Both the position numbers and the translations under genes were made by a program. Positions 27,373 to 31,580 of a stretch of 64,000 nt of DNA are shown piece by piece. The first letter of the stretch is position 1. Each line of letters begins with the position of its first letter. The stretch is from contig CAWACM010000014.1 of assembly GCA_963780455.1 (NCBI GenBank), positions 42,737 through 106,736 of the forward strand, written 5' to 3'. The notes under the pieces are model-generated. The model was not told the DNA's origin. It worked only from the letters and a program-made list of their open reading frames with translations, and did not search any database. Origin of the DNA: an uncultured Pseudomonadota bacterium (lineage in GTDB: Bacteria > Pseudomonadota > Gammaproteobacteria > Steroidobacterales > Steroidobacteraceae).

Positions 27373-28446
27373 TCCACCCCTCCACTCGGATCCTGCCGGC
27401 AGTGTAAGTGCTGCGAGCCGAGCCGCCTAAGGCCGTTCACTGCACGCGGCTGGCGATTCGCTGCAGGGTGAGTTCGCAGCGGCGGCGCATTGGCGTAGAG
27501 TGGCCGCCATGGTGCGTCGTGACGTAACGAAAGCTGAGGCTGCGACCGTGGCGGAGGCGATCGTTACTCGCTGCGCTTCTTCAGTGGGTGTAAATCCCAT
27601 TCCGGTAGGCATCGGTGCGCCGGGTAGCAGGCCCCAGGTATGAAGGGAGACCTTCATGCCCAAGCGGGGCATCAAAAGCCCGCTGCACGGCGTGAGCCGC
27701 GTAGCGGGGAGCGAGCACACGGGCTGCAACTTAAGGTGAAGCCTGCAGCCTCGTCATACTCACAATCCGGAGGCCGAGCCGCTCATGTCACGGCGAAGGC
27801 AACACCGGTCACGGGAGCACCGAAGTCCGTGGCCAGCTCCGGCGGGGTATGGGGCGCAGCACGTGTGTCAGGAGAAGCGCGGAACACGAGAGACCCGTCT
27901 GCACCGCCCGGCGGCCTTGAGCCGCGCGAGAAAGTGCGACAACTGCAACGTCGGCTATGGGCCGCAGCCAAGCGTGCCCCGGGAAGACGTTTTCACGCCC
28001 TGTATGACCACATCTGGAGAGGTGACGTGCTCCAGGAGGCGTGGAGGCGAGTGAGGAGCAACCGCGGCGCCGCGGGGGTCGATGGCCAATCGATCCGCGA
28101 TGTCGAGCAGTACGGAGTCGAGCGGTTCTTGGAGGAACTGGGTTCCGAGCTGCAAGCGGGCAAGTACCGTGCGCAGGTGGTGAGGCGGCGGTACATACCG
28201 AAGGCTGATGGGAAGAAGCGGCCGCTGGGGATACCGACGGTAAGGGACCGGGTGGCTCAGATGGCGGCGAAGCTGGTGCTGGAGCCGGTGTTCGAGGCGG
28301 ATTTTCTACCGTGCTCGTACGGCTTTCGGCCCAAGCGCAGCGCGACGATGGCCCTTGAGACACTGAGGAAGCTCGGTGCCAAAGGAGGCCATTACGTGCT
28401 GGATGCCGACATCCGGGATTACTTCGGGAGCATCGATCACGAGAAG

Positions 28447-30210
28447 TTACTGAAGCTCGTGGGGTTGCGTATCTCGGACCGAGGGATGCTCAAGTTGCTG
28501 AGGCAGTGGCTCGAGGTAGGGGTGATGAACGAAGGCGCCGTCGAGCGGACGGTGGCTGGCACACCGCAGGGCGGGGTGATTACCCCCCGAACGCAAAAGG
28601 TAAGTTTCACCCGCGGGCCCACCGCCCGGAGGCGAAGGTGCCGGCGGGACCGGGATCGAATGGCGGATCGTGATGGTCTGATCACCGACGAGAACATCCT
28701 TGACGAGCAGTCGAACGATTCGCTGACGCTCCAGCACTTCGATGGTACCCGCCGAGACGCGCAGGCGCTCGAGGAACGCCGTCAGGGTCTCTGCGAGGCG
28801 CAGGTAGGCGGCACGGTCATTGACCTGGTCAACGATCGCCTGCAACTCGGCCTGCATCACCTGCTCTCGCTGGCGCAGATCTGGAATGCGTCGACGCAGC
28901 TCGTCAATCGACAACAGGTCTTCCTGATAGGCAGTGAGCATCCGCTCCATGCTCTTGCGCACGCGCGCCAAGTCGCGCTGCAGCGCTTTCTCGCGCTGCT
29001 GCGCAGGGTCGGCGGTGCGCGCGGCTGCGAGCCGACGGTCGAGCTCCTGCTGGATCAAGCTCGGATCCTCGAGCAGACGCACGACTTCGGTCCACACGAC
29101 CTGATCGAGCAGGTCCTGTCGGACCGGACGGTTGTCGCACACGGGACTCGCGAGTCCTCGCCACTGATCAGAGCCGATGCATCGGTAGTAGTGGATGTTG
29201 CGGGCACTCGAGCGGGTCGAGGTGCGCGACAGCGCGTAGCCGCACTTGCTGCACGATACGAGGCCCTGCACGATACTTGGGGTGATGGTCCGGCGCCGCG
29301 AGAGGATCTTGTTCTGCTCGAGCAGTTCTTGCGCGCGCTCGAAGCTCTCTTCGGTCACGAGTGCGGGAACCGGGATGGTGATCCAGTCGGCCCGCGGCCG
29401 CTCGTGATGTGCGCTGTCGCGCGATCCAACGCGGCCACGTTGGCGGATCGGACGCGTGATGCGTTGACGCGGTGCCGTGCGAGTTTTGCCAAAGCACGCG
29501 GTGCCGATGTACGCGGGGTTGCGCAGGATCGCCCATACCGTCGAGCGCTCCCAACGCGACAGTCGCTTGCGGGTTGGTATCCCATCATCGTTGAGTTCGC
29601 GGACAATCGCGCCGATGCTCAGGCCGTCAATGCTGTAGCGCTCGTAGACCCGTCGCACGATATCCGCCTCGGCGTCGAAAACCTCGTAAAATGCAGGGCT
29701 ATCCTCGCCCTTGCGGACATAGCGGTAACCATACGGGGCGCCGCTCAGAACGCTCACCTGGCCCTGGCGCGCACGGTGTCGCTTGCCGCGGCGGGAACGC
29801 TCGAGAATCTGCGCGCGTTCGTACTCGGCGATCATGCCCTGGAACTGTACGAGCAGTTGATCCTCCGGTGTGGCGTTCGCCGGTGCGTTGAGGAACACGG
29901 TCTCAACCCCATGACGCGCGAACTCCTCGATCAGCAGAACCTGATACGCGTACTTGCGGCTCAGGCGGTCGGGTCCGTAGACGAGCACCGCCTGGATCTG
30001 GCCTTCGGCGGCAAGGTCACGGATACGCTCGAGACCAGGACGCACAAGGCTCGCGCCGCTATAGCCTTCGTCCTCGAACACCCAGGCGTCGGGTACCTGG
30101 AAGCTCCGCGTCTTCGCAAACTCGATCAGTGCCGCCGTCTGGCTCGCGATCGTGTGTTCCTCCCGCTGTTTGTCCGAAGATACGCGAGCGTAGATCGCTG
30201 CTGCTGTCAT
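28447..30210 (-). CDS. Large serine recombinase (resolvase/invertase N-domain + recombinase domain + zinc ribbon + coiled coil)
   Basis: The N-terminus is MTAAAIYARVSSDKQ. A Cys cluster reads CSKCGYAL...YYRC...PVC. A long coiled-coil tail follows. The last 44 codons and the stop lie outside the element, beyond the left TIR. Confidence 0.9.
   Translation of the reverse strand: MTAAAIYARVSSDKQREEHTIASQTAALIEFAKTRSFQVPDAWVFEDEGYSGASLVRPGLERIRDLAAEGQIQAVLVYGPDRLSRKYAYQVLLIEEFARHGVETVFLNAPANATPEDQLLVQFQGMIAEYERAQILERSRRGKRHRARQGQVSVLSGAPYGYRYVRKGEDSPAFYEVFDAEADIVRRVYERYSIDGLSIGAIVRELNDDGIPTRKRLSRWERSTVWAILRNPAYIGTACFGKTRTAPRQRITRPIRQRGRVGSRDSAHHERPRADWITIPVPALVTEESFERAQELLEQNKILSRRRTITPSIVQGLVSCSKCGYALSRTSTRSSARNIHYYRCIGSDQWRGLASPVCDNRPVRQDLLDQVVWTEVVRLLEDPSLIQQELDRRLAAARTADPAQQREKALQRDLARVRKSMERMLTAYQEDLLSIDELRRRIPDLRQREQVMQAELQAIVDQVNDRAAYLRLAETLTAFLERLRVSAGTIEVLERQRIVRLLVKDVLVGDQTITIRHSIPVPPAPSPPGGGPAGETYLLRSGGNHPALRCASHRPLDGAFVHHPYLEPLPQQLEHPSVRDTQPHELQ
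28581..28609. repeat. Left terminal inverted repeat TACCCCCCGAACGCAAAAGGTAAGTTTCA
   Basis: It is the reverse complement of 30768-30796 with one mismatch. Confidence 0.9.
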
Positions 30211-30367
30211 CGATCACCTCCGTTACGCGGCTTCGCTCACCAGCGACTCGCACGCGGTCTGAGACGAGAAGCTCGTACGCCTGGGCGAGCTTGCTCTGCA
30301 GGCGCCGATCGAAGAAGTAGTCGAGGCGAACCTCGTAGTGGCTTGCGCGTCTTTGGCGCTCAGCCAT
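30059..30367 (-). CDS. Hypothetical small ORF between the RHH-like gene and the recombinase gene
   Basis: ATG 30367 overlaps the stop of the upstream ORF. About 52 codons precede a 150-nt out-of-frame overlap with the recombinase gene. The true extent is unclear. Confidence 0.25.
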   Translation of the reverse strand: MAERQRRASHYEVRLDYFFDRRLQSKLAQAYELLVSDRVRVAGERSRVTEVIDDSSSDLRSRIFGQTAGGTHDREPDGGTDRVCEDAELPGTRRLGVRGRRL

Positions 30368-30689
30368 GCCTGCCCACGGCGACGAGGAAGGCCGTGATCG
30401 CGCGGGTGACAATCTGCCCCAGCGTCAGTCCGCTCGAGGCTGCGTATGTTCGCAGGTCGCGAACAACGTTCGCAGGGATCTTGAACGTCACCGGGATCGA
30501 CGACTCGATCTCCGGCACCGGATGGCCAATCGCCTGGGCCTCCTGCACGTACCGATATGCTTGACGCTGCGATAGATCGAACTCGCGGATCAGGGTCTGC
30601 ACCGCATCCGGCACGCTCAACCCGCGGGCGACGAGGCGGTGCGCAGCGTTCAATCGCTCGGCCTTTTCGGCGGCAGTGGCTCTTGACAT
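30360..30689 (-). CDS. Small HTH / ribbon-helix-helix-like protein (possible regulator or directionality factor)
   Basis: 109 aa. The C-terminal part, IPVTFKIPANVVRDLRTYAASSGLTLGQIVTRAITAFL, looks RHH/CopG-like. An AT-rich region with palindromes (ACATATGT) and TTGACT lies upstream. Confidence 0.55.
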   Translation of the reverse strand: MSRATAAEKAERLNAAHRLVARGLSVPDAVQTLIREFDLSQRQAYRYVQEAQAIGHPVPEIESSIPVTFKIPANVVRDLRTYAASSGLTLGQIVTRAITAFLVAVGRHG

Positions 30690-30767
30690 ATGTCATATAT
30701 GTATTACCGTTTACGTCTAAAGTCAAGCAACGGCATGTTCCGCCACCCGTCAACGAGACGGTCGAAC

Positions 30768-30796
30768 TGAAAGTTACCTTTTGCGTTCGGGGGGTA
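30768..30796. repeat. Right terminal inverted repeat TGAAAGTTACCTTTTGCGTTCGGGGGGTA
   Basis: It is the reverse complement of 28581-28609 with one mismatch. Confidence 0.9.
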
Positions 30797-31488
30797 ATCT
30801 CGCCGTTGCTGTCGAACATCTACCTGCATCTGCTCGACGTGCTGTGGACGCGCCATAGTGGCCCGATGGGGACGCTGGTGCGATACGCAGACGACTTTGT
30901 GGTGCTGTGCCGCACCAAGAAGGATTGCGAGCAGGCCGAGGCGCGTATCAAGGTGATCTTGAAGCGTTTGGGTCTCGAACTGCATCCGGAGAAAACGAGG
31001 CGAGTCGAGCTCTACGATGGCAAGGAGGGCTTTGACTTCCTCGGTTGTCACCTGCACAAGCGCCTGAGCGGCCGGATATGGGAACAGGAGCGGAAACGCC
31101 GCTACTTCCTGCATCGCTGGCCGAGTCGACGTGCGATGGTGCGGGTCCGACAGCGCGTGAAGGAGCTGACCACCCGGTCGCGGTGTCATGCGGATATGCG
31201 CATGGTCATCGCGGACCTCAACCCCGTTCTGCGCGGTTGGGGCAGCTACTTTCGCACCGGCACTGCCGCTCGCCAGTTCGAGGGTCTGGATAGCTACGTC
31301 GTGGGTCGGCTGCGCCAACTGCGCCTAGCTCGCAAAGGGCGCCACCTTCGGGCCGTTGAATCCAGAGACTGGACGCGCGAGTACTTCGAACATCTGGGCC
31401 TTCATCGCCTGCGCGGGAGTATCTGTTACCCGGAGCGAGCCTTTTGGCAGGAGAGCGCATAATGCTGCGTGCCGACCAATCACCGGTA

Positions 31489-31519
31489 AGCCGTGTGCGG
31501 GAAATCCGCATGCACGGTT
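31489..31519 (+). ncRNA. Group II intron domain V
   Basis: AGCCGUGUGCGG-GAAA-UCCGCAUGCACGGUU. It has the AGC catalytic triad, a 2-nt bulge on the 3' strand and a GAAA loop. It starts 26 nt after the IEP stop. Confidence 0.85.
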
Positions 31520-31580
31520 TGAAAGGGGGCCCTGACCGCTCCTGCCGGAATCCGGCTTCATCAGTGGTCAGGGTCTACCA

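Follow-up and report, generated by a model that had tools for sequence, protein, structure and literature searches.

Transposons mobilised by a large serine recombinase (LSR), such as Tn4451/Tn4453 (TnpX) and Tn5397 (TndX), excise as circles and reinsert through the action of the LSR alone, with a 2-nt crossover. Elements of the Tn4451/Tn5397 type measure 6-21 kb, carry resistance/mobilisation (catP/mob) or conjugation genes, use a GA core and choose their targets loosely; the circle junction of Tn4451 reportedly forms the promoter of tnpX (Lyras & Rood 2000, listed among the references of PMC13023037). Among insertion sequences (IS), IS607 is, to our knowledge, the only serine-recombinase-driven family recognised in ISfinder. 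Here we describe a 2216-bp LSR element lodged within the reverse transcriptase (RT) gene of a group II intron. It was found in a 64,000-nt stretch of DNA, hereafter the window, from an uncultured gammaproteobacterium of the Steroidobacteraceae (assembly GCA_963780455.1, contig CAWACM010000014.1, positions 42,737 to 106,736). The element belongs to a real and widespread LSR-driven IS-like family which is undescribed in the sources searched: neither the literature searched nor curated family models hold a description of it, and the novelty that an earlier note on this DNA, made from its letters alone, had claimed for a cargo-less 2.2-kb LSR element has to this extent survived, no NCBIfam model matching at its cut-off.

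Circle excision and reinsertion by the LSR alone with a 2-nt crossover, as in Tn4451/Tn4453 and Tn5397, is also what we propose for this element, and in both Tn4451 and the element the joined ends matter for the recombinase, there by forming a promoter and here by completing its open reading frame (ORF). The element differs from the Tn4451/Tn5397 group in its 2.2-kb size, its long near-perfect terminal inverted repeats (TIRs), its single protein-coding target motif and its lack of cargo, as well as in its cores, which are AT, GT, GC and CT and not GA. The same domain architecture, and presumably the same chemistry, is found in the serine integrases of phages and of integrative and conjugative elements (ICEs) (phiC31, Bxb1, A118, SPbeta SprA) and in skin/SpoIVCA, fdxN/XisF and SCCmec CcrAB; phage, ICE and gene-interrupting LSR elements share with ours the integration inside conserved coding sequence and the precise excision. 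Phage and ICE serine integrases, however, move tens of kb, and use an asymmetric attP, a non-palindromic core that fixes orientation and matched cores, whereas here we find no cargo, a symmetric attP, both orientations, many copies and cores that are often mismatched.

Conserved multicopy landing sites are also exploited by the IS1111-attC group, which inserts into integron attC sites, by group II introns homing into IS elements, and by the IS that target repetitive extragenic palindromic (REP) sequences (PMC1525189). With such target-specialised systems the element shares the landing site of this kind and a low expected cost to the host, but they employ DEDD/DDE transposases or ribonucleoprotein retrohoming, and the element an LSR; the literature searched yielded no report of an element with the coding sequence for the intron RT motif as its target. 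IS607 is likewise small and has a proposed circular intermediate. In its published descriptions (PMC6188088, PMC4058570), the DNA-binding domain of TnpA is N-terminal and the catalytic one C-terminal, and the IS lacks TIRs and shows minimal target specificity; in contrast, our element encodes an N-terminal catalytic domain together with recombinase and zinc-ribbon domains, has TIRs and is strictly specific. Multi-targeting LSRs (Durrant et al.) usually carry DUF4368 (PMC10083194), whereas the LSR of the element has no Pfam match to this domain at E <= 0.01; TnpX and TndX probably belong to that multi-targeting clade. Finally, the archaeal "suicidal" integrases of the SSV type have their site inside the recombinase gene, with intact enzyme made only from the episome, and a review knows of recombinases disrupting their own gene at integration only from Archaea (PMC8371274). 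Those are tyrosine enzymes of archaeal viruses and plasmids, their gene being cut into two inactive parts, whereas the present case concerns a bacterial serine recombinase that loses no more than its final 30 codons and its stop, all recognised domains staying intact. As an enzyme of another class, it cannot be a member of the archaeal tyrosine family.

Boundaries, empty site and gene content

The element spans positions 28581-30796 of the window (table 1). Its ends are formed by the 29-bp TIR TACCCCCCGAACGCAAAAGGTAAGTTTCA and a reverse complement identical at 28 of 29 positions (one mismatch), and AT borders it on either side; when the flanks are included, the inverted repeat extends over 38 nt at 92%. 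No further match to the TIR with up to three mismatches exists in the window, and shuffled controls yielded 0 matches in 100. The RT gene is interrupted between GGV and ISP: its N-terminal half terminates in ...GTPQGGV followed by AT, the first two bases of an Ile codon, and the Pfam domain RVT_1 is covered as far as position 124 at 28578, restarting with position 125 at 30797 ahead of the GIIM maturase domain. The RT break, the AT flanks and the TIRs had all been proposed in the earlier note, and each was recovered at the same coordinates.

By deleting the element and one AT we obtained a healed RT, which was used as a query for intact RTs. Empty introns proved common in this search. Two intact RTs, P0125 and P0126, are 98% and 96% identical to the query at the amino-acid level, and their metagenome contigs (L090 and L091) match the healed intron across the junction at 97.3% and 96.3% nucleotide identity, in L090 without a gap. 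In these contigs the empty site reads ...CCGCAGGGCGGGGTGATCTCGCCGTTG..., and the junction sequence of the uninterrupted, ~97%-identical introns is exactly GGGGTGATCTCGCC; the GGGGTGATCTCG that had been predicted for uninterrupted homologues is therefore what they contain. The alignments across the junction show that the insertion comprises exactly 2218 bp and that the TIRs are not ordinary intron sequence, a possibility that the earlier note had itself raised: the repeat is absent from the empty introns and present at both ends of 74 elements residing in unrelated introns. The empty intron homologue L090 also holds, upstream of the RT region (402-616), some 213 nt that are absent from the intron of the window.

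Most characterised LSRs are phage or ICE integrases, and PHROG 95 "integrase" is the best phage-family match of this one, so that the gene could be viewed as serving a larger prophage, ICE or genomic island, with the real ends elsewhere and the 29-nt repeats incidental. We give this explanation practically no credence. It is already contradicted by the empty sites, which lack exactly 2218 bp; moreover, the flanks are the two halves of one RT gene, and the same ~2.2-kb boundaries and TIRs recur in all of the 74 copies, which derive from many phyla.

Table 1. Features of the element and of the intron that harbours it, in window coordinates
Feature	Position	Strand	Basis or remark
Host group II intron D1-D4	27591..27856	+	Rfam RF02005 group-II-D1D4-6, 69.9 bits, E 1.7e-17; intron 5' end lies further upstream
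RT gene, N-terminal half (putative attB left arm)	27901..28580	+	RVT_1 1-124; healed ORF 98% identical to P0125
Core dinucleotide AT, LSR-3' junction	28579..28580		removal of one AT and the element gives the L090/L091 empty site
TIR at LSR 3' end, doubling as coding sequence for ...TYLLRSGG of the LSR	28581..28609		~26 nt conserved in 74 elements
LSR, codons 1-543	28582..30210	-	Pfam domains, invariant catalytic residues
ORF2, small conserved protein, motif DYxFDRLxxSKLAQAYxxLVP	30059..30367	-	72/74 elements
ORF1, 109 aa, N-terminal three-helix (helix-turn-helix-like) and C-terminal ribbon-helix-helix-like domain	30360..30689	-	74/74 elements
Promoter-like box	30698..30726	-	alignment of 66 left ends; inside the last LSR-tail codons, directly upstream of ORF1
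Detached recombinase 3' end, 30 codons (YPPNAKGNFQFDRLVDGWRNMPLLDFRRKR) and TAA	30704..30796	-	in the LSR frame only if the ends are joined via a 2-nt core
TIR, ORF1-side end	30768..30796		inverted-repeat search; family alignment
Core dinucleotide AT, ORF1-side junction	30797..30798		sequence; empty-site comparison
RT gene, C-terminal half, (I)SPLLSNIYL... and maturase domain (putative attB right arm)	30799..31462	+	RVT_1 125-205, GIIM
Host group II intron D5/D6	31486..31536	+	Rfam RF00029, 43.4 bits

The element contains ORF1, ORF2 and the LSR gene, and no cargo genes. Pfam matches of the LSR are Resolvase (7e-34, residues 4-151), Recombinase (2e-23) and Zn_ribbon_recom (8e-10), and the catalytic residues R9, S11, Q15, D81, R82 and R85 are invariant in an alignment of 24 homologues; a heptad-like stretch at 380-500 of the alignment suggests a coiled coil within the zinc-ribbon region. 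The best match among solved structures is the SPbeta integrase (E 1e-12), while similarity to TnpX is restricted to the catalytic domain (E 3e-5). The best NCBIfam models, CcrB and XisF, both score far below their cut-offs, and transpos_IS607 attains 34.8 bits against a cut-off of 110, over the catalytic core only.

Codon-position entropy in ORF1 (0.85/0.58/1.44) reveals third-position variability, and its pUSDA76 homologue is named "ribbon-helix-helix protein, CopG family" in RefSeq. The AlphaFold model (pLDDT 79) gives weak, non-significant matches to folds of the helix-turn-helix type (best E 0.27), and there is no match to PDB sequences. ORF1 is thus a probable DNA-binding regulator. ORF2 shares sequence with both of its neighbours: its ATG overlaps the stop of ORF1 (ATGGCTGA), and its 3' part extends, in a different frame, over the start of the LSR gene. 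In the part without overlap the codon-position entropy is 0.84/0.85/1.34, again with third-position variability. ORF2 has no match in Pfam, NCBIfam or PHROG, has two called homologues in the protein database and is modelled by AlphaFold as a single, uninformative helix, and we regard it as a candidate directionality or accessory factor. Upstream of ORF1 the family shares a box of the form TTGAY-N17-TATGTT-like, TTGACT-N17-TACATA in the window.

Some local variation was noted around this region. A perfect 12-nt palindrome, TGACATATGTCA, overlaps the ORF1 start codon in the window (30691-30702), its palindromy not being kept in other family members; a Bradyrhizobium erythrophlei copy (L023:3345-5648) has a 57-nt insertion between a TAATAT box and ORF1, and three acidobacterial left ends (L034, L066, L074) have an 18-nt duplication upstream of ORF1. 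Elsewhere in the window, four tRNA genes (Rfam RF00005; 58744-60426, plus strand) bear no relation to the element.

Relatives, target motif and orientation

Database relatives of the LSR number in the thousands. Apart from P0069 (67%), its 120 best homologues share at least 72% identity with it. Contigs of 2-3 kb, like those of collapsed repeats, carry many of them, and all 120 diverge directly after ...SYLLRSG, residues which are encoded by the TIR. A scan of species-representative genomes returned at least 497 relatives, of which 79 loci were taken for analysis. TIR pairs in 71 of these (one weak pairing was later dropped), together with two plasmid copies and the window, make up the set of 74 elements. 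Their length is 2213-2303 bp (median 2231), and ~26 nt are conserved at the ends, with the consensus cACkCCCCttACrCAAAAGGTAAyTT. Hosts include Alpha-, Gamma- and Deltaproteobacteria, Acidobacteriota, Gemmatimonadota, Verrucomicrobiota and Eremiobacterota, and the spread of the family amounts to at least eight phyla. Plasmid copies are present in Bradyrhizobium elkanii USDA 76 (pUSDA76), Rhizobium, Mesorhizobium and Streptomyces, the last of these, with 51% LSR identity, likewise lying within an intron RT. Rhizobium sp. 007 and Telmatobacter bradus DSM 23630 are, like USDA 76, cultured carriers. Relatives with ~41% LSR identity on TOL plasmids are located outside RT genes and mark the outer limit of the RT-targeting clade. 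On these plasmids (L089, Pseudomonas putida pDK1; also pWW0, NC_008275) they adjoin two more "recombinase family" genes in the interval that separates the ben genes from xylS. In a Candidatus Udaeobacter metagenome-assembled genome (MAG), an extra terminal-repeat copy occurs 215 nt past the LSR-side end of a complete element (L063:2452-2475).

Where a single MAG holds several copies, these show 99.9-100% identity along their 2.2 kb, yet they sit in different introns and orientations. A search for further copies, as the earlier note had advised, showed that the source assembly has four LSRs on four contigs (the others being P0001, P0123 and P0124); these are identical over the 543 element-encoded residues and, judged from their protein tails, end in four distinct flank-encoded sequences and occur in both orientations. 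The size (below ~2.5 kb), a gene content limited to the element's own mobility or regulation, the TIRs and the multiple near-identical copies are those of an insertion sequence. Empty sites and identical copies in different introns provide comparative evidence for transposition, and the element appears, on these grounds, to have moved independently and recently.

Healing the flanks gives an RT-like ORF through the junction in 59 of 67 loci, and all of these are occupied at GTPQGG(V)↓(I/V/A/L)SPLL(A/S)N (the arrow marks the insertion). Ribozyme domains of group II introns were found on the matching strand in all 15 loci tested with Rfam, the occupied introns belonging to classes D1D4-2, -3, -4, -6 and -7. 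Since the motif is common to introns of five D1-D4 classes, the target is a protein-coding motif and not one particular intron. The resemblance between target half-site and element end, remarked upon in the earlier note, extends to the family consensus. Directly upstream of one occupied intron are three tandem ORF-less group II ribozyme units (D1D4-7 and D5/D6; L042:505-2674). In seven loci (L005, L038, L040, L041, L045, L077 and L079) both flanks show the same RT half-site, that is, two PQGG or two SPLL sides; these could be products of homologous recombination or inversion between opposite copies, or assembly chimeras, most being short-read contigs.

The LSR gene is antisense to the RT in 30 copies and sense in 29. 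This split, together with the seven contigs carrying joined ends described below, fits the proposal of the earlier note that a symmetric attP is unable to set orientation. Inverted sites with a palindromic core would also permit inversion, and a domesticated switch, in which the LSR flips or removes the DNA in situ and so turns the RT on or off, could account for equally frequent orientations; in L067 and L068, for example, the same intron family harbours 100% identical elements that point in opposite directions. There are precedents for LSR elements that interrupt genes, among them skin (SpoIVCA) and the fdxN element (XisF), and XisF is one of the sub-threshold NCBIfam matches. Nevertheless, neither orientation restores the RT, identical elements occupy unrelated introns of one genome (e.g., L002/L003/L004), the family spans phyla and intron classes, and empty introns are common. 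We therefore consider such a switch improbable as an explanation of the family, although a transposing element could well undergo inversion in situ as a by-product.

Read in the sense of the RT, most flanking dinucleotides are AT, GT, CT or GC, corresponding to the first two bases of an I/V/L/A codon, and the atypical ones (AC, AG) are reverse complements of typical ones. The pairs differ between the two sides in 30 of 56 copies. A dinucleotide borne by the element at a fixed side was considered and rejected, the informative atypical ones, read by eye, being distributed 4:4 between sides. The pattern fits a mismatched exchange followed by segregation of the heteroduplex core, and may point to a tolerance of core mismatches; homologous recombination between copies, or assembly chimeras, might also have given rise to the mismatches. 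TIRs plus a short direct repeat are also the classic signature of DDE-type transposases, and matched non-palindromic pairs (GT/GT, CT/CT) do occur. In such a scenario a transposase would act in trans and produce a 2-bp target-site duplication, the LSR being a passenger or resolvase. A true duplication should match on both sides, though, which more than half of the pairs do not; no copy is accompanied by a transposase gene, the LSR ORF passes through one TIR to end in the other, and the target specificity is extreme. TIR and target, moreover, have the sizes to be expected of LSR sites, whose attP and attB typically measure ~50 and ~40 bp, and transposition by a DDE enzyme seems very unlikely. 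Family-wide targeting of the RT motif, a variable and often mismatched core that is not always AT, and the split recombinase gene presented below go beyond what the earlier note had put forward.

The recombinase reading frame and the joined ends

As integrated, the LSR ORF comprises 587 codons on the minus strand and continues into the flank to 28447. The earlier note had assigned all 587 residues to the element; the LSR domains are indeed there, but 543 codons lie inside and the final 44 derive from flanking antisense RT sequence, because the element holds no stop codon for this ORF. The same arrangement pervades the family. At the element end the LSR frame has no stop in 74/74 copies, always with exactly one base left over, and it is open up to that end in 73/74, the exception being L078, with an internal stop further upstream. 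Given the constant 1-nt remainder, only a spacer of length 2 modulo 3 keeps the LSR frame. When the ends are joined via a 2-nt core, the ORF runs 30-32 codons further to a TAA in 69/74 copies, through a conserved tail of the form ...KGNFQFERxxxGWRxxxxxLDLRLKR. A stopless ORF and a tail completed across the joined ends thus imply that integration splits the recombinase gene, and since the tail is in frame only there, the native enzyme (574 aa in the window) would come only from joined ends.

Several lines of evidence indicate that the detached tail is coding sequence. Beyond the TIR, codon periodicity exists only in the LSR frame (entropy 0.72/0.52/1.27, p=6e-5), indels are multiples of three, and the synonymous share of codon differences is 0.40 in the LSR frame against 0.10 and 0.07 in the others. 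The LSR-continuing frame is open in 60 of 64 distinct ends, versus 7 and 1 for the other frames, and even the Streptomyces copy, at 51% identity, has an open tail of 35 codons that ends in a stop. As far as the aligned copies can tell, then, the tail is under coding constraint; the proposed attP lies within the recombinase ORF, integration separates the parts of the gene, and we predict that the tail is translated. In an alternative view the 93 nt on the ORF1 side would be conserved as DNA, for recombinase sub-sites and promoter, and never translated into recombinase, ORF continuity being a by-product. The stretch does overlap the TIR and the conserved promoter-like box, its TAA sits in a conserved GGTAATAT motif, these triplets, when read in antisense, likewise give an open frame in 52 of 64 ends, and no native tail was seen among the 120 best LSR homologues. 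Third-position variability confined to the LSR-continuing frame, indels in threes, the excess of synonymous differences and the recurrent position of the stop all oppose a purely DNA-level constraint, which we judge unlikely, if the most serious of the competing explanations.

A search with a degenerate TIR-NN-TIR pattern identified seven metagenome contigs in which two family ends are joined through 2 nt, and no match in viral contigs. In L083 and L080 the junction joins the ends of the same element head-to-tail (cores GT and GC) beside an RT flank, and the LSR frame enters the conserved tail; in L085 two different members are joined head-to-tail and the frame reads to the stop codon, while in L084 two members stand head-to-head. 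The seven contigs prove recombination at the element ends. In the remaining three (L081, L082 and L086), an element end is joined to a further TIR, which is followed by an MmeI-like gene. L081:2647-5978, whose junction recurs in three samples, has the ORF1-side end of an LSR element, AT and a TIR, and ~450 nt on a frameshifted type IIL restriction-modification gene of the MmeI family, with the Pfam domains MmeI_N, MmeI_hel and MmeI_Mtase. The MmeI-linked end may belong to a relative with the same ends that either carries cargo or is non-autonomous.

Proposed mechanism and implications

We put forward the following model. LSR dimers would bind both inverted ends, over ~26-29 nt each, and recombination of attL with attR through a 2-nt staggered cut, which is typical of serine recombinases, would release a 2218-bp circle and precisely repair the RT gene. 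The joined ends of the putative circle would constitute a near-palindromic attP of ~56 bp, to be recombined with an attB of ~40 bp, the DNA encoding GTPQGG(V)↓(I/V/L/A)SPLL(A/S)N of intron RTs, with crossover at bases 1 and 2 of the I/V/L/A codon. Given two equivalent attP arms, and a core that is in many cases a palindrome (AT, GC), insertion could take place in either orientation. The native 574-aa enzyme would be produced only from a circle or a head-to-tail tandem, integrated copies making an enzyme with a flank-encoded tail; ORF1 would serve as a regulator and ORF2 possibly as a directionality factor. The intron target is multicopy and travels horizontally, and its disruption should cost the host little.

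Several observations weigh against this model. The spacer in the junction search was preset to 2 nt, and tandem insertions would explain the junction contigs just as well as circles; in L085 and L084, at the least, the joined ends come from two different elements. Flanking dinucleotides match in 26 of 56 copies (13 AT/AT, 7 GT/GT), and characterised serine integrases need matching cores. Integrated copies must excise with a non-native tail or else need enzyme from another copy. Finally, a generic sigma-70 promoter scan called nothing in the element of the window, whose promoter-like box is weak. With these points taken into account, we still hold it to be highly probable that this is an autonomous, cargo-less, IS-sized element driven by its LSR in the manner outlined. 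A more far-reaching interpretation is tentative, and we lean slightly away from it as a whole. It would make the family the first bacterial, and the first serine-recombinase, case of a recombinase gene spanning its own attachment site, in which the 574-aa circle form and the integrated form with a flank-encoded C-terminus set the direction of the reaction, without or beside a classical directionality factor. Combined with orientation-blind, core-mismatch-tolerant recombination into a ~40-bp RT motif in at least eight phyla, this would render the family an obligate hyperparasite of introns.

If the model is true, this is the second IS family based on a serine recombinase and the first driven by a large one. 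Directionality control could be modelled simply, and testably, on the split recombinase gene, and core mismatches, if tolerated, would challenge the rule that serine integrases require identical central dinucleotides. An LSR with a ~56-bp attP, a ~40-bp attB and hundreds of natural variants and targets also constitutes a ready data set for work on specificity and on the engineering of integrases. Soil bacteria harbour the family in abundance, it is found on symbiosis-type plasmids of cultured rhizobia, and RefSeq annotates its enzyme only as "recombinase family protein". By landing in the RT gene of group II introns, the element is a parasite of another selfish element, specialised on a conserved coding motif of its host, and it bears on how group II introns become inactivated and on the many "interrupted" intron-encoded protein sequences in intron surveys.

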